64,000 bases of DNA from Vairimorpha necatrix. Its lineage: Eukaryota. Under the pieces are notes generated by a model that saw only the letters and a program-made list of their open reading frames with translations, was not told where the DNA came from and did no database searches. The stretch spans positions 1 to 64,000 of the forward strand of contig CP142727.1 of assembly GCA_036630325.1 (NCBI GenBank). Reading direction: 5' to 3'. A program made the position numbers and the translations under genes. Positions 1 to 54,168 of the stretch are shown in pieces. The stretch's first letter is position 1, and every line of letters begins with the position of its first letter.

Positions 1-2334
1 CCTAACCTACCTACCTAACCTACCTACCTACCTAACCTACCTACCTAACCTACCTAACCTACCTAACCTACCTAACCTACCTACCTAACCTACCTAACCT
101 ACCTACCTACCTACCTACCTACCTACCTACCTAACCTACCTAACCTACCTACCTACCTAACCTACCTAACCTACCTAACCTACCTACCTAACCTACCTAC
201 CTACCTACCTAACCTAACCTAACCTACCTACCTAACCTACCTAACCTACCTAACCTACCTACCTACCTAACCTACCTAACCTAACCTACCTACCTAACCT
301 ACCTAACCTACCTAACCTACCTACCTACCTAACCTAACCTACCTAACCTAACCTACCTAACCTACCTAACCTACCTACCTACCTAACCTACCTACCTACC
401 TAACCTACCTACCTAACCTAACCTACCTACCTAACCTAACCTACCTACCTACCTAACCTACCTACCTACCTAACCTAACCTACCTACCTAACCTACCTAC
501 CTAACCTACCTACCTACCTAACCTACCTAACCTACCTAACCTACCTAACCTACCTAACCTACCTACCTACCTACCTACCTACCTAACCTACCTACCTAAC
601 CTACCTACCTAACCTACCTACCTAACCTACCTACCTAACCTACCTAACCTACCTAACCTACCTACCTAACCTACCTAACCTACCTAACCTAACCTACCTA
701 CCTAACCTACCTAACCTACCTACCTAACCTACCTACCTAACCTACCTAACCTACCTACCTAACCTACCTAACCTACCTAACCTACCTAACCTACCTACCT
801 AACCTAACCTACCTACCTACCTAACCTACCTAACCTAACCTACCTACCTAACCTACCTAACCTACCTACCTACCTAACCTACCTAACCTACCTACCTACC
901 TAACCTACCTACCTACCTAACCTACCTAACCTACCTAACCTAACCTACCTAACCTACCTAACCTACCTAACCTACCTAACCTACCTACCTACCTACCTAA
1001 CCTACCTAACCTACCTACCTACCTAACCTACCTAACCTACCTAACCTAACCTACCTAACCTACCTACCTACCTACCTAACCTACCTAACCTACCTAACCT
1101 ACCTACCTAACCTACCTAACCTACCTACCTACCTACCTAACCTACCTAACCTACTAACCTACCTACCTAACCTACCTAACCTAACCTACCTACCTACCTA
1201 ACCTACCTACCTAACCTACCTACCTAACCTAACCTACCTACCTACCTAACCTACCTACCTACCTACCTACCTAACCTACCTACCTAACCTACCTACCTAC
1301 CTAACCTACCTAACCTACCTACCTACCTACCTAACCTACCTAACCTACCTAACCTACCTACCTACCTAACCTAACCTACCTAACCTACCTACCTACCTAA
1401 CCTAACCTAACCTACCTACCTAACCTACCTACCTACCTAACCTACCTAACCTACCTACCTAACCTACCTACCTACCTACCTAACCTACCTAACCTACCTA
1501 CCTACCTAACCTACCTACCTACCTACCTACCTAACCTAACCTAACCTACCTAACCTACCTAACCTACCTACCTAACCTACCTAACCTACCTACCTACCTA
1601 CCTACCTAACCTACCTAACCTACCTAACCTACCTACCTACCTACCTACCTACCTACCTACCTACCTAACCTACCTAACCTAACCTACCTACCTACCTACC
1701 TAACCTACCTACCTAACCTACCTACCTAACCTACCTACCTACCTACCTAACCTACCTACCTAACCTACCCTACCTACCTAACCTACCTAACCTACCTAAC
1801 CTACCTACCTAACCTACCTAACCTACCTAACCTACCTACCTAACCTACCTACCTAACCTAACCTACCTAACCTAACCTACCTACCTACCCAACCTACCTA
1901 CCTAACCTACCTAACCTACCTACCTAACCTACCTACCTAACCTACCTAACCTAACCTACCCTACCAACCTAACCTAACCTAACCTAACCTACCTAACCTA
2001 CCTAACCTACCTACCTACCAACCTACCTAACCTACCTAACCTACCTAAACCTAACCTACTACCTAACCTAACCTAACCTACCTAACCTACCTACCTAACC
2101 TAACCCTACCTAACCCTACCTAACCTACCTACCTAACCTACCTACCTAACCTACCTACCTACCTAACCTAACCTACCTAACCTACCTACCTAACCTAACC
2201 ACCTACCTACCTACCTACCTAACCTACCTACCTACCTAACCTACCTACCTACCCTAACCTAACCTAACCTACCTACCCTAACCTACCTACCTACCACCTA
2301 CCTACCTACCTAAAACCTACCCTAACCCACCTAC
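1..2334. repeat. Telomeric array of irregularly mixed CCTA and CCTAA units (TAGG/TTAGG on the G-rich strand)
   Basis: Starts at base 1, with the C-rich strand on + as expected for a left chromosome end. Built almost entirely from the two units; variants (CCCTA, CCAA, CCA) accumulate from about 1770 onward. Confidence 0.96.
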
Positions 2335-2499
2335 ATAACACGTAAGCTTTTAGCCCTTAAACCTTCCTAATTCTTTTGTTTAAAAAATTTATTAGTTAAA
2401 TCAATATGTAACTAAAATAAATAAAAATTGAAAATTTGTTGATAAAATTTATCTAACTCTTTTTATAATTCAAGTATTTATTTCAGATTAATAATTATA

Positions 2500-5400
2500 T
2501 GTTATACTTTTTTTTAATAGGGGGTTCAACCCCAAGATCCCCCTCCAGACGTGTAGTCTCACGTTACAAGCTTCTAATTTATAATTTTATAATCTTTTAG
2601 TTTATAATGTCGTTTCTTAATGTATCTTTAGCTATCAGTCCTTACAATATAAGAATCATTTTCGTACTTTTCCATTATTTTACCAACATTTGTGAATCTT
2701 CCTTTCATACTTTTTATCTATTTTCCCAAAATTTTATCTTGCGATTTTCACAGCCTGATCTACTTCAAATTTTTCTCTATGTTTTTGTTTAAACTTACTT
2801 GCATACACACCCTTTTAATTGTTTTCAATTAAGACTTCTTCTCCTTGGTCCTTACATGCTTCCATTGGTGTACATTTTATCGTTGTGTGTAGAGTGTTAT
2901 TATAGGTTCATACAGCTTGTTCTAGTTTTTCTTCTGGGTTTCCTTCTTTTTATTTGATCATTGATTCCCTTATTGTTCAAATACATCGTTCTATTCTTCA
3001 ATTACTCCTATGAGCTTCTAAACCTACTTTCCATTGACTAATTTCGTTTTCTATACACCAAGTTACAAAATTCTTACTAAAAATTCCTTATGTTTTCCGT
3101 AATATATTCATCTAGGTATCTATCTCAAATATCCATTTTATAAAGTTTTAGACTAATTTCACTATCATTATTTTCTATCTTTGCGTCACATATTCTTGTT
3201 CTAAGTAGTCCATCCCAAATAGCACGTATCTTTCTATTTGCCAAATATCCAATACGTTAGAAAGTTTTTTAAATTTCTTAAATATTGTTACTTAATTGCT
3301 ACCTCCCATCGTTTTTCTATTATTAATGCTACATACTTCACAATTTTTTAGTGTTGTGGTTATCTGGTACTTCATACCGGACCAGTACCATCTTTGTTTA
3401 ATCTTATAATGTGTTCCCTTAACTCCTCGATCTATTTAATTCCTCATGAACTCTACGAATTTCTGTCTCTTGTTAGTTCGTTGTGTAGTAGTTTTTTAAT
3501 TTCTCCTGTTGAGAACTTCCATTAGTTTTTGCCTTCTCTTTTAGCTATGCGCTTGTTTTCTTTCCCTTTCATCTGTTTTGGGGCCGTTTCTCTCTTTAGC
3601 GATTTTCAATTTCTTCGTTATTTTCAAATTGTCTACTAAGAGCATCCACATACGTCATCAATTCTCCTTTTACTTATTTAATAGTAAAATCGAACTCTTG
3701 TATATATTCTATCCATCTCTTAATTATAAAATTATTGAAAAACGGGTTGTTTCAAATCTCGGCCAGCCCTTTATGATTTGTCATTTATTAAAATTTGCTT
3801 CGTCCAAAACTGACTCAAATTTCTTTATTCCGAATAACACTGCCTTATCTCTTTTTCACTAATCGTATACCTTTTTTAGGTTGGTGTTATCATTTTTGGT
3901 GCCCAATGTATCGGATTCCACCTTTCTTCTTTGTCTTCTTGCAGAAGTATGGCTCAAATTCCCGTATCGCTTGCATCCGTTCTTACTCTAAATATTTTTT
4001 ACTATCTTCTATTTTTAATTTTAACACATTCTTCAAACCCTCTTTGATATCCATAAAAGCTCTTTCCAAATCTTCGGACTATCCCCACTTAACATCTTTT
4101 TTAGTGCTTCTGTAAGACGTGCTGTCCGTTAAGCATAATTTTGAATAAAATCTCTAAACCAGCCTGCCCGTCCCTCAAATCTTCTAAGATCTTTTATGTT
4201 GTTAGGCCATCTGTATTCTTATGTCTTTTGCTTTTTAATTTTGTTAGGTGTAATGTCTTCTCCGTTAATTGATACTCCAAGTAGTTTTACTTCTCCTTTA
4301 TGTTTTATTTTTTTTTAGGTTTCTTTTAATCCACATTTGTTAAATTTTCGAATTACTTGTTTTAAAAAATTTTCGTGTATATTACTATCTCTTGCATGAA
4401 ATATAATAACATCCATGTACACCTCAACACTCTTGCCTCTAAACTTATCTAAAACTCCGTTCATCACTCTTTGCATAATATGGGGAGCATTTTTAAATCC
4501 CATTACCATGCTATTCCATTCGTAAACTCGAACATTTATCTCAAAGCTTTCTTATGTTTTTGAGCTTTCTCAATTTTATATGATAGAATCCTTCCTAGAG
4601 GTCTATAACTGTAAATACTTTAAAACTTTGCTTTGCCCTAATAATGTCTCTAATTAATGGCAATTCATACGGATCCTTTTTAACCAGTTCATTTAAAGCC
4701 ATCAAATGGCTTCTCAATTGTACTTCACCATTTGGTTTTTCTATGGGCTTTATTAGGCTTCTCCATTCGCTCTTTGTCCTTCTGATAATACCTCTACTTT
4801 CTAATAAATAAATATACTTTTCTAACTTTTCTCGAATTATAAGAAATATTTTGTCTTTTTATATCTACTTTCACTTCTTGTTTTGTTTTGATAGAACATT
4901 TCCCCCCTGTTAAGTATTTATTTACTCTTCGTCTTTTCCTATTACCTCAGGAAATTTTCCTTCTAATTCTTAATATTTATTAATATTTTTTCTTCTTGTA
5001 TCTTGGTTTGTATTTTTTACATAAAAACTGTTTCTTGAGTTCTCTCTCTCTACCTCCACTGTTAGTCTTAATTTAAAATCATTTCCTTTTAATATTTTCA
5101 TTTTACTATTATCATGAATGCCAAAATATTTAACACTTTTATTTTCATTATTCTCTTCCTGTCTTCCTTTACGCTCCATACAACCTCTAGCTATATGTAT
5201 AATACTTCAACATATAAAACAATGTTTTTCTTCTCGTCATTGATATTAAAAGTTTCTTCCTGGCACTGCTACAGTCCTGGTAATTTATCGTTTAATCTTC
5301 TTTTTAATTTTTCTTTCATAATCTCTACCATATCTGAAAGTTCTCTACTCCTTATTTTTTCCTTGTTATGATTCTCTTCTTGTTTACAACCAATTTATCA

Positions 5401-5650
5401 ATAATATCATTCCAATTTATCATACTAATTAAAGTTTTATCATTAATAAAATTTTGAATTTCAGTACTTACTTGTTGCGCCTTTTCGTTGTCACTTCATT
5501 TACATTTTTCTGCATTATGATGATCGTCTCACTCTCTGAGCTTTTTTTAGGAATTTATTGTTCTCTTAAACACGGCTCTCACTTGTTACCCTTTTAGTAT
5601 TTTGTGTTCGCCATGTTATAATTTATTTAATAGGAGGTTCAACTTAAACA
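2500..5650 (-). mobile_element. Degenerate Ty3/gypsy LTR retrotransposon with 37-38 bp LTRs, next to the telomere
   Basis: Diverged direct repeats at 2500-2537 and 5614-5650. PBS-like TGGCGAAC follows the 5' LTR on the minus strand; PPT CGTCTGGAGGGGGA precedes the 3' LTR. Broken gag knuckle CFIC*SIIHIARGC (~5180-5225), RT MVMGFKNAP...VYMDV (4315-4509), RNase H and integrase remnants. Flanks TTATA/TTTTA fit a 5-bp TSD with one mismatch. Confidence 0.88.
4315..4509 (-). pseudogene. Reverse transcriptase fragment of the gypsy element
   Basis: MVMGFKNAPHIMQRVM...VEVYMDVII aligns by eye with MVMGYKNSPQILQRIM...VEVYMDDIV of the 41-44 kb element; the catalytic YMDD has become YMDV. Confidence 0.9.
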
Positions 5651-12146: not shown

Positions 12147-14116
12147 TTAGGTATTACCCGGGAGTTGGCCATTCCTCAGATAGCATTCTATAATGCTTCT
12201 CCCGGGTATTAAAGTTTTATTATAATGCAAGTTGTATTATTAAATCTGCCTCCTTGGGCTTTATCTTTCCTCTTCTAAGGATGCATTGATTGATACTGCT
12301 TATTTCTAGACTCCTCTGTTCTTATTGACATATTTTGGTGGGGGTAAAAATAAAAAGAAAATATTTATAGAAAAATAAATTCTAAAAATTCATTTGGAGG
12401 GAAAATATAATAATGTGGCAAATAATACCACATACTACCTCCTGCAAAAAATCAGCAAATTAGAATGCGGATTCCTCCGAAATCATCAAATAGTTCTTTT
12501 CGCCGTTTCCTAGTAATAGCTGGGTTGGATATTCTAAACCTCAAATCAAGGTATGAGTTTAACTTATCACATTTAAGCTTCTCAGATTCGCCCTTTACTC
12601 CATATCTACATATGCTAAATTGCATCTGCTGCATTTTATTTTTGAGGCAATGTTTTCTGAAAGTTCCAAGATTTTTTTTTTATTCTGATAACTATCATAT
12701 TTAGATGTTGCCAAATCTTTTACCTGTTGATGGTTATCTTTAATTTTATCAGGAGGCTTGCTTCTTCCTTTGTTATTTATTTTAATATTTTTGAATATAT
12801 ATCATCTGATGGTATCGTATTCCCTGTCCTTTTCACAAAGTCAACAATATTAATTAAGACTTTAGCTGGAAGATTGTCTATTTTTTATTCAAATTCCTTT
12901 TAATACAATTATCTATATTATTTATTCTTTCATTTATACATTTCTGTTTATTGATGATTTTATTTTCTTTTTGTTTCTGTTTTAATAGGCAGTCGGTTTT
13001 TATGTTTTTCATCCAATTCATCGTTAGGGATTTTTTTTATCATTAACGATTTTCCTTTTTTTTTTATTTCTCAATCGTGGGCTTTTGGTTTTCGTAGACG
13101 ACAATCTCGTGTAGCATGTGATCTTGCTCGATGTATACAGCACCACTTATCACTTTTAAAGTATCTTCCTGTTTCTTCAGGTCTTTTATAATTCTCTTTC
13201 TTAGATATAAATTGAGATATTCGTGTCCCTTCCAGTTTCGTCTGTAAAATTATATTTCTTCTAGATCTTGTGAATATTTTAATAGCTCGTCCATTCTCTT
13301 GTTTTTCATTCCTGATTTTAAAACTTCAATGGCAGTTGATCTGCCTAATCCTCTCTCAAAAATCTGTTTCAATCTAACATCAAATTTCTTTTTCGATAGG
13401 TTCATAGATAATCTGTATATTTCAATCATCGACTCTATTTTCTCATAGTAATCTGCTATACTTCTATAATTTACCTGTTTTACAGTTTCCATCTCTGTTA
13501 ATAATAGCAGCATCATTTTTTGGATATCTAAATTCTAGTAGTTCTTTTTTTTGTTTTTTGAAGCTTTTCTTATTTAGCTTATCTTTCACCTTAGAATCTT
13601 CAATCAAAGAATGGTAGATGAGTCTTATCTGCTCATCAGTCCATTTATTGGCCGTTCCTAGCTCTTTAAACAGCTCGAGATGCTTTATGGTATAGTCTCG
13701 TTTTACAGTTTTCAATTTTTTCTTTAACCACTATTGTAGTTCCTTCTATGGTTTTATCAAATGTGGTATATGCTTCATCATCATTTTGTTTCTCAGTATT
13801 ATTACTTTTTTCTAATACTAATGAGCTCATTGAGGTATTACCCGGGAGTTGGCTGCTCCTCAGTATTCATTCTATAATGCTTCTGCCGGGTATTAAAGTT
13901 TTATTATAATTAAAGTTGTATTATTAAATCTGCCTCTCTGGGCTTTATCTTCCTCTTCTGGGGATGCAGTGATTGATACTGCTGATTTCTAGACTCCTCT
14001 GTTCTTCTTGACATATTTTGGTGGGGGCAAAAATAAAAAGAAAATATTTATAGAAAAATAAATTCTAGAAAATTCATTTGGAGGGAAAATATAATAATGT
14101 GGTAAATAATACCACA
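12147..14116 (-). mobile_element. Internally deleted LTR retrotransposon with ~286-bp LTRs and a gag remnant
   Basis: Direct repeats at 12147-12432 and 13831-14116 with inverted termini TGAGGTATTA...TAATACCACA. Exact 5-bp TSD AATTC at 12142-12146 and 14117-14121. Frameshifted gag pieces (13464-13715, 13250-13516), knuckle-like KWCCIHRARSHATRDC (~13100-13150), purine-rich tract before the 3' LTR. Most of pol is missing. Confidence 0.9.
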
Positions 14117-40600: not shown

Positions 40601-41296
40601 CTCAAGGTATTTATTTTGAAAACAAAAACTTCAGTTATTGTTGCTGTTACATTATTTTTAATATTTTTGTTGTGTTTCTATATTATGATACATCTTTAAT
40701 GCAATTTTTTTGATGTACATTTATTTTGTTTTTTACAAATAAAATTATCATCATCACCTATGAAAGAATTTTTAAAATTTTTTCCTTCTCTTTTTCCTGT
40801 TTGAAAATTTCTAATCTACATACTAAGATCTTATTTTGGAAAAATAATAATCGGGATATAGATTTTATAGTCTTTTCTTGAAATTATAAGTGTGTTTTCT
40901 ATATATATATTGTAAAACTTTTTCATTCTAATTATATTTTTATACTACTTTGATCCAAAATATCGTCAATATCGTTTTTTAAATTTTTATTTACTCTTCA
41001 AAAAAAAAGAAAAAAAATGTTTATAATTCAAAAATTCTCAACGAAGGACAATAATAATTGTATAGAAAGTTTATAAGCACGATTAATTGTGTTTTGAAAA
41101 TAATTTTGGCCCCATATTCAGATCATATGCTACTTAAATGGATTTTTAAAAGGCGAACTTTTTTTATATTCTCTCTTGAGAGAATGAAATTAAAAAAAAA
41201 TAAAGAAGAGTAACAAACTACAAACAAAATATATCGATCCCGCTTTCTAAAAGGGACAAGCGCACGCTTGTAGTTTACAATATTAAAAATATACAA

Positions 41297-44200
41297 TGTT
41301 ATATTCAGAATAATATTAAACCCCAATTATGTTAAGCACTTATATGGGGGCGATACCTAAAGAAGAGTTCACAAGAGAGGACTGTGGCCAAGTGGTCAGA
41401 AAGATGTTACAGGAGTTAGAGCGTATATTGTATGAATTGGATTTGAGAGATGTAGATAGAGTGAAATGGAAGAGTGAGCTGTTCAAGTTGGCTTCGATGG
41501 ATTTAAAAGATTTTATTGTGAGAAATATCAAAAAGGAAGAAAATATTGAAGGAATAAGGAAGAAGCTATTGTTAAGGATTAAGGAAGTAGAGGAAAAAGA
41601 AAAGATATATGAGGAAATGGGAAAAATTATTTCTAGGACTATAAATGAAGAAATTAGTAGAGAACAACCAAGACAAAAATCGAGAGTACCGAGATGCTTC
41701 TATTGTGATAGACAAGGGCATAGGGTGTTTGAATGCAGACTGAAGATTAATAGAGATAATTATTATAAAAAGAATAACAAGGATAACAGTTGCAAAATGG
41801 AAGTAGGTAGTGAATCAGAGTCAAGTCAGGAGCGAGATTTTAGAAGATCAAAAAGAGGACTTAGAGTCAAATTTGAGAAAAATCAAAAAGAATATGCCGT
41901 TAAAGAGGAGAGTAAGAGAATCAGATTAAATTTAGATAAGTATGCTAAGAGTTTTGGAGAGGTTTTTAAGTTAGGAAAAGAGGAGATAAAATATTGTAAA
42001 CTGGAAAAATGTAAAATTAATACTGAAGCGGGTATGAAGGTATTTAAAAAGGGACAAATGGTTCCGCAGGCGTTGATAAAAGATACAGAGCTACATCTAA
42101 AAGATTTATTAAAAAGGAAAGTGATAAGAGAGTCAAATTCAAGTTGGAGGAATCCTATAAGGTCAATCAGAAAGCCAAATGGTGAGATAAGACTGGTTAG
42201 TAATTTGATGGCATTGAACGATATTGTAGAAAAGGACGAGTATAGATTGTCTAACATAAGAGATGTTGTAAGAGCTACACAAGGTGCAAAATATATGACG
42301 GGTTTCGACTTAAAAGAGGCCTTCTATAGTATTGAGATAGAGGAGGAGGATAAACATAAGACGGCGTTTGATTTTAATGGCAAGGTTTATGAATGGAACT
42401 CTATGGTTATGGGATATAAGAATAGCCCGCAGATATTGCAGAGAATTATGGATAGGATTTTTAGAGATATGAAAGGCAAAGGAGTAGAGGTGTATATGGA
42501 CGATATTGTGTTGTACAGCCGAACGATAGGAGAACACGAGCAATTAGTGAAAAGGGTATTAAATAGACTGAAGGAAAACAATTTGAAGCTGAATGCAAAT
42601 AAAGTTCAGTTTTGTCAACGGGAAGTTAAATTATTGGGAGTCACTTTAAATGGAGAAGATATAATACCGTCAGAGATAAAGAAAAATGAAGCCCTAGAGT
42701 TTCCGATACCAACATGCGTGTCAGATGTAAGAAGATTTTTAGGAATGACGGGTTGGTTCAGAGATTTTATTAAGAATTACGCTGGATTGACAGTTAGGTT
42801 GACAGATAGTTTAAAAGGGAAGAATGATAATTGGAAGTGGACGGATGATATGAAAAACGAGTTTAATAATTTAAAAGAAGTATTTAAAGGCCTAGGAAAG
42901 CTGCAAATAGCAGACTATGATAAAGAATTTTTGTTGAGGACTGACGCTAGTAATGTAGGCATGGGCGCAGTACTGTTACAGAAAAATAATCAAGGAGAAT
43001 GGGTGCCGGTACAGTGGGCGTCTAAGAAGTTTACCGTTACGGAAGTTAATTATGGTATATCAGAAAAAGAAATGTACGCAGTTTTTTGGGGCGTTAAAAA
43101 GTTTGAATATGAATTAAGAGGTAAGAAATTTAGAATAGAAACTGATCATAAAACGTTGGGCGAAATAAGAAACAAGCCCGACTTTAAGAATGCTAGAATT
43201 AATAGATGGGCCGAGAAGATTCAGGAATTTGATTTCGTGATAGAATATAGAACTCCAGAAAATATGGTCGTAGCCGATGCGCTAAGTAGGATATATACAA
43301 AAGAAAAAGATGCAAAGAAAAAGAGAAATGAAACACGCCGTGATAGACAAAAAGAAGGGAAAAGAAATAAGCATGTAAAAATTGTAGAAGGCAAAGAATA
43401 CTGGGTATTTGATAGTGGTAGAGAAGGCGAGATGCCTTTGGAACAAGACAGAGAGAGATTAATAATGGATTGTCATTTAAATTTGAGCCACAGAAGCAGA
43501 ACAACGGTATATTATGAGTTGAGGAAACAGTATTATTGGCCAGGAATTAAGGATCAGATCGAAAAGGTCCTTAAGAATTGCGAGACTTGTCAGATTTTTA
43601 ATAAAAAAACGAGTGGCGGTACTGATTTAGTGAACACGACAAGATATTTAGAGAAGGTTGGCTTAGATTTAATAGAATTTAGGGAAGAGAAAGCGTTTAT
43701 TGTTTGAGCAGTTAATTACTTTACAAGGAGATTATGGGAGAGTATTGAAGAGCAAGCACGCATTTGGAATTGCCGAATTTATTAAGGATTTGTGTAAACA
43801 AGGCAGAAAACCAGAGGAAATTATTACGGATAATGGTAAAGAGTTTTGCAACGAAAAAGTTACCGAGCTATGTAGAAATTTGGATATTAGCTATAGAAAG
43901 GTCAGCGTTGAGTCGCACAGAAGTAATGGAAGAGTAGAAAAAGTTATTAGAACTGCAAGAGATAGTATTTTAAAGAGCCAAAAAGAAAAATTCGAGAACA
44001 AGGTTTATGAAGCTATTGAGAAATATAATTTAAGTTGTCATGCTGGTATTAAGTGCACGCCAGTAGAAGCTTTAACCGATTATACAGGAAATGTTAGTAT
44101 GGAGAATAGTCCAGAGGGAAAGTATGCGCAACAGTTTAAAAGTTGGTTTAGAGAAAAGTTCAAAAGGAGCCAGATAGTTAGGGTTGCCAAGAATGAGAAT

Positions 44201-44436
44201 TTAAAGGGATGTAGTAAGTATAGTAAGGGTCGATTTTTAGACATGGGAAGAGTGATTGAGCTATGTTTAGGGGATTCATATATAGTGAGATTAGAGAATG
44301 GAAGGTTGGTGAAAAAAAGGCATTATGATCTTAAGGGTGTAGGGGATTTAAAGTATGTTGAAGGAGACTAACCGTCTGGAGGGGGGATGTTATAATCAGT
44401 AATAATATTAAACCCCAATTATGTTAAGCACTTATA
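41297..44436 (+). mobile_element. Near-complete compact Ty3/gypsy LTR retrotransposon (3140 bp) with 48/49-bp LTRs
   Basis: LTRs at 41297-41344 and 44388-44436 differ by one substitution and one indel. Exact TSD TACAA at 41292-41296 and 44437-44441. PBS-like TGGGGGCG at 41345; PPT GGAGGGGGGA ending 44387. Domain order Gag-RT-RH-IN. Confidence 0.96.
41329..44371 (+). pseudogene. Gag-Pol polyprotein, disrupted in the integrase
   Basis: CFYCDRQGHRVFEC knuckle, RT (FDLKEAFY, YMDD), RNase H (TDAS, EKEMYA, TDHK, ADALSR), integrase HHCC and TDNGKEF. In-frame TGA at 43705-43707 (AFIV*AVNYFTRRLW), then a frameshift near 43738 into ORF 43700-44371. Confidence 0.93.
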
Positions 44437-45364
44437 TACAATACAAAAACAAATATTTGATTTTGCAAAATAACATTTTTTAGTTTGTACAGGTGTATTG
44501 TTAAACCGATTGAAAATTCGAACTAAAGCTTATTTAAACTTCATCTTGTATAATTAATTCATTTATTCTATAAATAGATCTCTATAACACAATATATACA
44601 CCCTTTTGTTTTAAAAGTCTTATGTAGTCTTAAAAATAATGGTTTGTCGGTTTTAAAGCTTACCTAAATACCATAAAACGAAACTTTATATAAATTTTGT
44701 TCTTTTATTACTCTGTCAAGAATCCTGAAATAAAGAGTGATGTATTTTTTTTCTATTCAATTGATTTGAAATCTTAAGCCCTACTTAGCATGTTTATATT
44801 AATATAACCCATGTTAAAAAATCTTATATTTACTTATAACGTGTCAAATATGAAATAAAAATTATGAATAATCTAAAGTTTTAATCTTACAGAATACTAT
44901 TTGCTTTTTTCATATATATGGCCAATATTTGAAATTTATTATTAAATAATTTTTATTTATTTAGTGGGCCTCGTAAAGCTCGATCATATTCTTTTAACTA
45001 ATTTAATGAGTTCCGTTTAATAAACAAATTATATGAAGAACGATTAGACATATTATAATTAAGAGTCTAACAAAAAAAGAACTCTCACTGAATAAAGACA
45101 TAATTTAATAACAAGGATTTTAGATTTATGTTATTGATATTATGCATTTATGACTAGAAAGACAACGATTATTATAAACAAAACATAATCCTAATCAATT
45201 TAGCTTATTTTCAAATAATATTATGATCAAAAATGTAAAGTTGTTTAAAGTTAGACCAGTCAAAAATTTACAACTTATGCCTGTTTGATGTTTTTGTATT
45301 CTTCCTTATATTTAATTAACCTTTTTGTTGCTTACTTAAAAAATCGAAGTTTTTTGATTATTAA

Positions 45365-46114
45365 TGTTGAGAATATAGATTTAATAAATTTAACCCTTAA
45401 CTTACAATTGTCTTTAACATGGTGGAGAATAAAATTATTGAACCCAAACAAAAACAAAAGAAGAGGTCGTAAGTTCCGTCGAAGCATGAGACGTAAAAAA
45501 AAATGCAGTCTAGGTTAGAATGGGGATGGTTGGTTGTCTAACAGAAGAGAAGGTGATGGCTTGCATCAGTCGAGGGACCCGGATAGGTGAAGACGTAAAG
45601 TAGCTATAAAGAGCTATGGAGAAACAGTATTGGTTTTTTTTTGATTCGGCATAAGAGTTGTCGAGATTGAGTGCAGTGGTAATCCCACTATTCACATTAA
45701 AGCTATCGTGGCAAGATAGTTGAACCAATAGTGTTCAAAATCCAGAGAGATTTAAAAAGATAAGAAAATCAAAAAGAAACTGTGTTATAGTCGAAGAATG
45801 AGATAGACGGAAAAAATTCGATTCCATTGTTGGGAAGACATGTGTAAAGAATAATCACATGCCCATAGACTACATGTATTAAAACAGGGAAAGAAAGTAC
45901 CTCGAAGACCAATACTAGAAAGGATTGTAAGACGCGGTAGAGTAAGGCGCAGCCCATGGTCAGTTAACATAAAAATGCACTTTTATTTTGAGAGCCCAGT
46001 AGTAGGCGTAGGAAGTAGTAAAGATAATTTCATCGCTAATTCTGAATTTAGCGCGGGGATGTTGAGAATATAGATTTAATAAATTTAACCCTTAACTTAC
46101 AATTGTCTTTAACA
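45365..46114 (+). mobile_element. 750-bp non-autonomous LTR element (TRIM-like) with identical 55-bp LTRs
   Basis: TGTTGAG...TTTAACA at 45365-45419 and 46060-46114. Exact TSD ATTAA at 45360-45364 and 46115-46119. PBS-like TGGTGGAGAAT at 45420; GCGGGGA tract before the 3' LTR; no long ORF. Confidence 0.93.
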
Positions 46115-46350: not shown

Positions 46351-47007
46351 ATGTACTTTTTATTAATTAGCTTCTATAGATGCTCTGTTATAAATGAAAC
46401 GCAAGATAATCTGATTATGAAGCAAAGTTTTGATTTTACTAGTAAAAATGGTGATGTTTATGCAAGTAAATTAATTCAATCTCTTAAAGCGATTCATTTA
46501 TGGAATAATAGCTTTAAATTACCTAATTCAAAAAATGAAAATGTTCTCAAATATAAAAAATTTGAATATAAAAAAGTATCGAAAAAAGCCAAAAAACTAA
46601 ATAATGGCATCAAAGATTTAAATGACTTATTAGATAAAAATTTCATAGAATTAAATACACAAGTACAGGTAATTTGTAACAAATTGTTTAAACATTTTGT
46701 TAAAACATTTAATTATAACAAAATTAGACATTTAGAAATATATGAAGAAGCTATGACATTGATCTCTCTGCATAAAATAAAAATTGAAAAAATCTATTCT
46801 ATATGTGAAAATATGGAATTTGATTCAAACTTAGCAGTGTTTGAAAATAATAATATCGCAGATAATTGGAAACATTTCGTGAAACAAGTAATAAACTACA
46901 ATATATTACAAAATTTTAAAGTAGTTATAAATGGCTTAGAACATATTAAAAATAAAATTAACAGAAATTATAAAGAACAGTTAAATGTGTTGGAGCATCG
47001 AAATTGA
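46351..47007 (+). CDS. Hypothetical, probably secreted protein (218 aa), paralog of 53518-54168
   Basis: Poly-T-ACCC-ATG context; short hydrophobic N-terminus MYFLLISFYRCS; shares LISLHKIKIEKIY, MEFDSNL and GLEHIKN with the paralog. Confidence 0.9.
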   Translation: MYFLLISFYRCSVINETQDNLIMKQSFDFTSKNGDVYASKLIQSLKAIHLWNNSFKLPNSKNENVLKYKKFEYKKVSKKAKKLNNGIKDLNDLLDKNFIELNTQVQVICNKLFKHFVKTFNYNKIRHLEIYEEAMTLISLHKIKIEKIYSICENMEFDSNLAVFENNNIADNWKHFVKQVINYNILQNFKVVINGLEHIKNKINRNYKEQLNVLEHRN

Positions 47008-53517: not shown

Positions 53518-54168
53518 ATGTACTTTTTATTAATTAGCTGCTTAAGATGTTCAGAACTAGAAAATATGCAAAGCAAAACAATTATCCAGAATAACTATGA
53601 CCTTACAAGAGGAGAAGATGCAAATATCAAAAATAATTTAATTCTTTCTTTTCATGCTATAACCATATGGAATAATAGTCTTGAGATTTTTAATACAGCT
53701 AAAAAAGATATCCTAAGGTTCAAAAATTTTGAATTCAAAAGATGGTCGAAAAAATCTAAGATCTTAGACATTAACGTCAGAGAATTAAATGCTTTATTAG
53801 ATGAAGATTTTATAAAGGATAATTCTAAAGTTGCAGCTATTAGCGTTAAATTATATAAACATTTTGATAAATCGATTCATCTTTATGATGTTAAGCATTT
53901 GAAAATGTATGAAAAAGCAATTAAACTGATTTCTTTACATAAAATAAAAATTGAAAAAATTTATAACATATGTAAAGATATGGAATTTGATTCGAATTTA
54001 AAGGTTTATAAAAACATTGATACTGCAAAAAATTGGAAAAATTTTGTGGAACAAGTCAAGAGATACAAAATATTACAAGATTTTGAAGTAGTTTTATATG
54101 GATTAGAACATATAAAAAATACAATCAACAAAAATGTTAAAGAATGTGCCGATGTGCTGGAGCATTAA
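53518..54168 (+). CDS. Hypothetical, probably secreted protein (216 aa), paralog of 46351-47007
   Basis: TTTACCC-ATG context; MYFLLISCLRCS N-terminus; colinear similarity to the 218-aa ORF. Confidence 0.9.
   Translation: MYFLLISCLRCSELENMQSKTIIQNNYDLTRGEDANIKNNLILSFHAITIWNNSLEIFNTAKKDILRFKNFEFKRWSKKSKILDINVRELNALLDEDFIKDNSKVAAISVKLYKHFDKSIHLYDVKHLKMYEKAIKLISLHKIKIEKIYNICKDMEFDSNLKVYKNIDTAKNWKNFVEQVKRYKILQDFEVVLYGLEHIKNTINKNVKECADVLEH

Follow-up and report, generated by a model that had tools for sequence, protein, structure and literature searches.

The closest described system in microsporidia to the element analysed here is Aalg retro L of Anncaliia algerae (Parisot et al. 2014, PMC4202319). 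This Ty3/gypsy element of 3127 bp has a 50-bp LTR and encodes a single polyprotein in an ORF at 32–3049. Inspected by eye, its LTR carries a CCC directly before the ATG and forms an in-frame ATG at its junction with the primer binding site (PBS). The likeness to our element is one of layout; the primer site differs. A count from Table S1 of the same paper gives 43 of the 50 complete consensus elements with an ORF that starts within the LTR, and the other seven entries are annotated with a start beyond it. An in-LTR ATG was found in all six consensus starts that we read by eye, four of them behind a strict CCC or GGG. Among the seven exceptions, retro S has an in-LTR ATG behind a GGG, and five of the other six contain a GG(G)-ATG inside the LTR (the former by eye, the latter irrespective of frame). 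The main text of PMC4202319 contains no occurrence of CCC, and we found no mention there of in-LTR ORF starts or primer sites.

In Ty1 of Saccharomyces cerevisiae, a copia-type element primed by the initiator Met tRNA, the bipartite PBS (RNA nt 94–104) lies inside the GAG ORF, and one RNA is both message and genome (PMC4974528). A coding PBS is therefore already known, as are the ORF and LTR coordinates of the Anncaliia elements in the 2014 table. In Ty3 of the same yeast, the PBS segments adjoin the 5' UTR and sit in the 3' UTR (PMC4974528). The grass element SMART (FRetro129) has an LTR of 85 bp, and its candidate autonomous partner FRetro64 has LTRs of 76 and 90 bp (PMC3281118); in contrast, the LTRs of 38–49 bp described below belong to full-ORF, protein-coding elements.

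A start motif is described for microsporidian genes. Transcripts of E. cuniculi have 5' UTRs of less than 7 nt, and a CCC-like motif lies upstream (PMC2803860); in Nosema, expression is linked to a CCC or GGG that lies no more than about 20 nt from the ATG (PMC11592040). Both sources describe the motif for host genes. The literature searched, with the Nbr elements of Nosema bombycis (Xu et al. 2006) outside the comparison, contained no general rule linking LTR layout to the host start motif and no coding LTRs of 38–49 bp.

Structure of the element

The window, a stretch of 64,000 nt, is the start of contig C2 of the Vairimorpha necatrix genome (15.0 Mb in 12 contigs, with a GC content of about 20–30% outside elements). 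An LTR retrotransposon of 3.14 kb occupies 41297–44436 and has the same 5-bp target-site duplication (TSD) on both flanks. Its features are as follows.

41292–41296 (+): 5' target-site duplication TACAA, same as 44437–44441
41297–41344 (+): 5' LTR, 48 bp, TG...TA (49 bp in sister copies), repeat of 44388–44436; edges set by the TSDs of sister copies
41315–41320 (+): ATTAAA, candidate poly(A) signal, the sole A(A/T)TAAA in the LTR of this element family
41321–41324 (+): CCCC, host-type start motif, 4 nt upstream of ATG 41329
41329–41331 (+): most likely Gag-Pol start ATG, within the LTR; the position, −16 from the LTR end, is the same in families F00–F04
41329–43707 (+): gag-pol ORF, 792 codons (small Gag, zinc knuckle, RT, RNase H, start of integrase)
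41344–41346 (+): junction ATG (last LTR base plus PBS), codon 6, in frame, possible back-up start
41345–41357 (+): PBS, 13 nt, complementary to the 3' end of host tRNA-Pro(AGG), codons 6–10
44378–44387 (+): polypurine tract GGAGGGGGGA, adjoining the 3' LTR
44388–44436 (+): 3' LTR, 49 bp; CCCC and ATG as in the 5' LTR
44437–44441 (+): 3' target-site duplication TACAA, same as 41292–41296

The two LTRs are one substitution and one indel apart. The ORF carries RT, RNase H, and the integrase zinc domain and ends at a premature stop at codon 793, while intact sister copies have 1014 codons. ATG 41329 and ATG 41344 both lie in the Gag-Pol frame, just as the sequence-only reading of this locus had stated. 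The ATTAAA would act as a poly(A) signal in its 3' LTR copy. In a search for the LTR core of this family that allowed at most two mismatches, the ATG and the CCC run were kept in all 44 matches. Of these matches, 36 are paired and at most eight could be solo LTRs, as would be expected if 49-bp repeats recombine poorly. Folding of the 5' RNA as inferred (41323–41440) shows no special structure (z = 0.49) and so gives no sign that the PBS or the ATG is hidden in a hairpin.

Primer sites were compared with host tRNA genes taken from 50 of 63 Rfam matches in this genome. The TGGGGGC PBS of the element matches tRNA-Pro(AGG) over 13 nt. The TGGTGGAGA PBS of a second element at 45365–46114 matches tRNA-Ala(AGC) over 12 nt, and the TGGCGAAC PBS of a third at 2500–5650 matches tRNA-Arg(ACG) over 13 nt. 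The Pro-like and Ala-like primers that had been predicted for the first two sites were thus both found. Across the 22 families described below, the primers are Pro, Arg, Ala, Ser, and Leu. The L158/L159 family, a divergent RT family on a long branch with LTRs of about 225 bp, has no TGG primer site that matches the collected tRNA set. Just beyond the 3' LTR of L081 lies a second element, whose Ala PBS matches its tRNA past the usual 12–14 nt.

Comparison with host gene starts

In a control set of 53 proteasome, Ras, and kinase genes of the host, in which the start was taken as the first ATG and not mapped, a CCC or GGG stands 0–11 nt before the ATG in 41 (CCC in 37, GGG in 4), with a median spacing of 4 nt; by this strict rule 12 genes have no motif. 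Internal methionines have the motif within 15 nt upstream in only 42 of 307 cases. The CCCC of the LTR, 4 nt from ATG 41329, lies at the host spacing expected of a microsporidian CCC-type promoter. The earlier claim of a host-gene-like context at this ATG holds for the spacing but not for the bases upstream, because the family's LTR has an A-rich run upstream of the motif, whereas the host-type motif is preceded by T-rich sequence.

Conservation across families

Related elements were collected from 68 of 92 RT relatives retrieved, 65 of 150 RVT_1 matches, and 13 of 43 matches to the 2500–5650 element; the RT searches scored part of the candidates (91 of 1234 and 150 of 835). Clustering of RT at 85% identity gave 23 clusters, and a 24th with 38-bp LTRs was added. 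Two were left out for want of an intact copy (the L087 cluster has no LTR pair, and the L110 cluster is broken), which leaves 22 families. A copy counted as "intact" if no stop interrupts the frame between RT and the end of the LTR, a definition that could bias the family count; the non-intact copies with an LTR pair all belong to families that have intact copies, except L072, L089, L110, and L255. In a tree of this genome's elements, the 22 related families fall into some six or seven lineages, and the counts given below therefore overstate independence.

The LTRs of these families range from 38 to 350 bp. The Gag-Pol frame of every family extends without a stop upstream into the 5' LTR, and an open in-frame ATG lies within that LTR in 21 of the 22, against 4.6 expected from 400 dinucleotide shuffles per LTR. 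A CCC or GGG is found within 16 nt before the in-LTR ATG (gap 0–13 nt) in 19 of the 22 families, against 1.18 expected. For the other two reading frames the count is 1 of 44. In each of the 19 families with the motif, the in-LTR ATG is the first ATG after it. F14 and F17 have no strict CCC or GGG; in F20, represented by a single copy, the junction ATG is the sole candidate and stands 20 nt from CCCC. By eye, the broken single copies L072, L089, L110, L255, and L098–L100 also have an in-LTR ATG in frame with the junction. An in-LTR start behind a host-type motif appears to be the rule over almost all families sampled in this genome. The family comparison bears out the earlier claims that the host motif stands at host spacing, that almost no room is left for a leader, and that the PBS is coding. 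It had also been proposed that the layout explains how a 50-bp LTR works. However, LTRs of up to 350 bp share it, so that tiny LTRs are permitted by the layout but the layout is not special to them. Taken as a whole, the earlier interpretation is partly supported.

Among individual families, that with 38-bp LTRs (L240–L247, L254) has an ORF of about 1006 codons, an Arg(TCG) primer, and an in-frame stop directly before the in-LTR ATG. The LTRs of F00 (L032) and F18 (L150) end in TA and AA, respectively, instead of CA, with perfect 5-bp TSDs.

Selection on the reading frame

In the families without a spacer between the LTR and the PBS, the in-LTR ATG lies at −10, −16, −25, −28, −31, or −40 from the LTR end, and these positions differ by whole codons. 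The sister families F10 and F12 (support 100/100) have a common CCC-ATG and nearly identical U5 and PBS bases, which are read in different frames. One is a base shorter before the PBS, and this is compensated after it, so that both rejoin the same Gag sequence. This compensated frameshift keeps the LTR ATG in register and suggests that selection acts on the frame and not on the sequence. In the 750-bp non-coding element at 45365–46114, the CCC is kept, and the in-LTR ATG is absent from all seven copies seen.

Of the 21 families with an in-LTR ATG, 14 have an AATAAA downstream of that ATG and still within the LTR. It is translated as Asn-Lys in every one of the 14; F22 has a second AATAAA in another frame. 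The possibility that the N-terminus forms a Met-Gly lipid anchor was rejected because other families have Met-Ala or Met-Val.

Reading out of the 3' LTR, 4 of 79 copies run at least 100 codons into the flank. Three of them are, by sequence resemblance, in-frame insertions in the ORFs of other elements. The fourth, L118, is an in-frame insertion in an ORF of no assigned identity, with an open frame of 1921 codons and the 3' LTR ATG in frame with the remainder. Since the long read-outs are insertions within ORFs, gene capture is without support, and no host gene clearly started by an LTR was found.

Proposed mechanism

From the element boundaries, primer match, reading frame, motif spacing, and conservation across families, all of which are established, we infer the promoter activity, the start site, the use of ATG 41329, the poly(A) site, and the time of priming. 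The host-type CCCC-ATG in the 5' LTR would launch both the RNA and Gag-Pol at 41329, and the PBS would be translated; we give this reading a probability of about 0.82. In microsporidia, polymerase II begins a few bases ahead of the start codon and immediately after a CCC or GGG motif. Because the RNA of the element must start within the LTR to hold R, U5, and the PBS, the start codon would be drawn into the LTR as well. The 5' LTR would provide the CCCC, the RNA would begin beside it, and ribosomes starting at ATG 41329 would read five LTR codons, the PBS (codons 6–10), and then Gag-Pol. The LTR-encoded peptide may be a passive linker that keeps the frame. The same RNA would later be packaged, with tRNA-Pro(AGG) as its primer; presumably translation comes first, as it does in Ty1. 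The PBS of Ty1 also lies within GAG (PMC4974528), so that translation followed by priming in the particle would be the simplest reading.

If the LTR uses the host start machinery, R plus U5 would measure only about 16–23 nt, and the initiating ribosome would adjoin the PBS. tRNA priming and initiation may compete, as the sequence-only reading proposed, although Ty1 tolerates a coding PBS. With a leader shorter than 7 nt, minus-strand strong-stop DNA would be about 16–23 nt here and 10–17 nt in the family with 38-bp LTRs. Several families have an AATAAA 7–19 nt short of the LTR terminus, which would place cleavage at the terminus or past it and leave no separate U5. The very short R and strong-stop lengths predicted bear on first-strand transfer.

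Alternative explanations

The sequence-only reading had placed the start either in the LTR or at the junction. ATG 41329 is most likely the start, since the junction ATG is preceded by a conserved ATG and stands 19 nt away from CCCC. That ATG 41344 is nevertheless a real or co-used start, with the upstream ATG serving a second isoform or going unused, is improbable. It has a G at +4, the base favoured by the host (PMC2803860), and this type of ATG is the sole candidate in F20 (L155) and in a metagenome element with a 57-bp LTR (L262). Its frame is also not random, as the suggested comparison across families showed, because it is kept in 13 of 13 families without a spacer; these families, however, make up only about three clades. 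The spacing of 19 nt falls outside the host range of 0–11 nt. Moreover, in all eight families with a spacer of 1–3 nt between CA and TGG, the junction ATG is absent or out of frame, which makes it dispensable.

A somewhat more probable alternative, although still an unlikely one, accepts the CCC-ATG unit as the source of the mRNA but has the packaged RNA start further upstream, in U3 or by read-through from the flank, with a longer R and a longer strong-stop DNA. Read-through and blurred 3' ends are reported for microsporidia (PMC2803860), and a strong-stop DNA of about 20 nt appears very short for strand transfer. However, the 49-bp LTR leaves only about 25 nt upstream of CCCC, and the copies lie in unrelated flanks with perfect TSDs and have identical LTRs in 80 of 100 cases, which fits one self-contained promoter. 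The whole arrangement could also be a product of chance, in that every A|TGG junction spells ATG and shuffled AT-rich LTRs yield an open in-frame ATG in 8–35% of cases, depending on the family. This is very improbable and is rejected by the counts, as 21 of 22 families were observed where 4.6 were expected and the motif co-occurs in 19 where 1.18 were expected; the compensated frameshift of F10/F12 and the same pattern in Anncaliia also oppose it. A start of both RNA and Gag-Pol at the CCCC-ATG of the LTR is the reading that we prefer.

Classification and the missing protease

The element has the two LTRs, TSD, host-tRNA PBS, and polypurine tract of a Ty3/gypsy element. In the intact sister L031, RT (280–440), RNase H (529–634), and integrase (706–857) follow one another in Ty3/gypsy order. 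The LTRs of the family depart from the TG...CA pattern and end TG...TA with perfect TSDs, while the four closest families end in CA. With Ty3, the element shares the RT-RNase H-integrase order, the 5-bp TSD, the polypurine tract, and tRNA priming. In Ty3, however, the GAG and POL frames are separate and a protease is present, whereas the present clade has a single frame and lacks the protease domain. In Pfam searches (E ≤ 1), an aspartic protease was absent from six of six Pro/Arg-primer families and present in three of three controls, and no D(S/T)G motif was found. Because the protease domain is missing, the element is probably a protease-less single-ORF derivative that works like Ty3/gypsy, and not a canonical member. 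In the tree, which covers this genome's elements only, the protease-less clade joins the protease-bearing Ala-primer clade with a support of 98/99. The Gag of the Pro/Arg-primer clade (41329–42120 in the window; L049, L065, L077, L079, L240) is about 140 residues long, and although no protease domain is present, the clade includes many full-length ORFs as well as LTR pairs that are identical.

As in Ty1, the PBS lies within the ORF, which begins 5' of it. In other respects the element differs from Ty1/copia, since integrase follows RNase H, the primer is an elongator tRNA, Pro(AGG), instead of the initiator Met, and the PBS lies about 16–23 nt from the inferred 5' end. The Ty1 LTR is about 330 bp long.

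Distribution and significance

Relatives outside this genome were sought in metagenomes, where 21 of 41 loci were examined, and in viral contigs, where none was found among 100 candidate stretches. The closest metagenome matches (L260 and L261, 62%) have no LTRs and are fusions with other RNase H sequence. The gypsy-like L263, L273, and L275 have the ordinary layout with a downstream start. L283 has its start in its own LTR, L274 has no LTR pair but shows both in-frame ATGs, and L262 has a junction ATG only. In L287, the LTR is about 54 bp and the start lies 72 nt downstream of it, behind a CCC run, so that a short LTR does not force the in-LTR layout.

The layout spans RT families 30–70% identical to that of our element, in two microsporidian genera, and ties a host trait, the near absence of a 5' UTR, to the architecture of a set of mobile elements. 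There is perhaps an even chance that the lack of leaders in host transcripts has imposed a common design on LTR elements of microsporidia as a group, in which the motif, the ATG, usually the poly(A) signal, and the first codons all lie in the LTR and self-copying becomes near-minimal. If true, this minimal design, with its missing protease, would offer a direct way to probe the lower length limit of R. Each LTR would be a portable motif-plus-ATG cassette. LTR finders usually have a floor of 100 bp; LTRs of 38–70 bp fall below it, and Gag starts would be mis-annotated if sought 3' of the PBS.

Other features of the window

Two further elements had been cited as side examples of the same layout.

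45365–46114 (+): non-coding LTR element, 750 bp, with 55-bp LTRs, Ala(AGC) PBS, and TSD ATTAA; CCC present, in-LTR ATG absent
2500–5650 (−): decayed LTR element, with LTRs of about 37 bp and Arg(ACG) PBS at 5601–5613

While the main locus was confirmed, these examples stood only in part. The CCC of the 45365–46114 element is present, but it lies 22 nt from a junction ATG that opens only 17 codons in a non-coding element. The 2500–5650 element has a CCC-like CCTCC in its 5' LTR, but this is not CCC, and the copy is full of stops; in its sister copies, an in-LTR ATG lies 10 nt from the LTR end. The 750-bp element has at least 40 copies with 80–99% identity, and its LTR resembles that of the coding element L255. 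The 2500–5650 element is found near most contig ends at about 85% identity and has apparently spread with the subtelomere.

A telomere array of mixed CCTA/CCTAA occupies 1–2330; a composite TAGG/TTAGG telomere is described for Nosema (PMC11592040), and together with the CCC start motifs this points to a Nosema-type microsporidian. Two paralogous ORFs, each some 217 codons long and set in duplicated flanks, lie 7.2 kb apart at 46351–47007 and 53518–54168, and a diverged direct duplication is found at 12149–12420 and 13833–14100, 1.68 kb apart. A stand-alone integrase-core ORF is located at 19901–20467 on the reverse strand.
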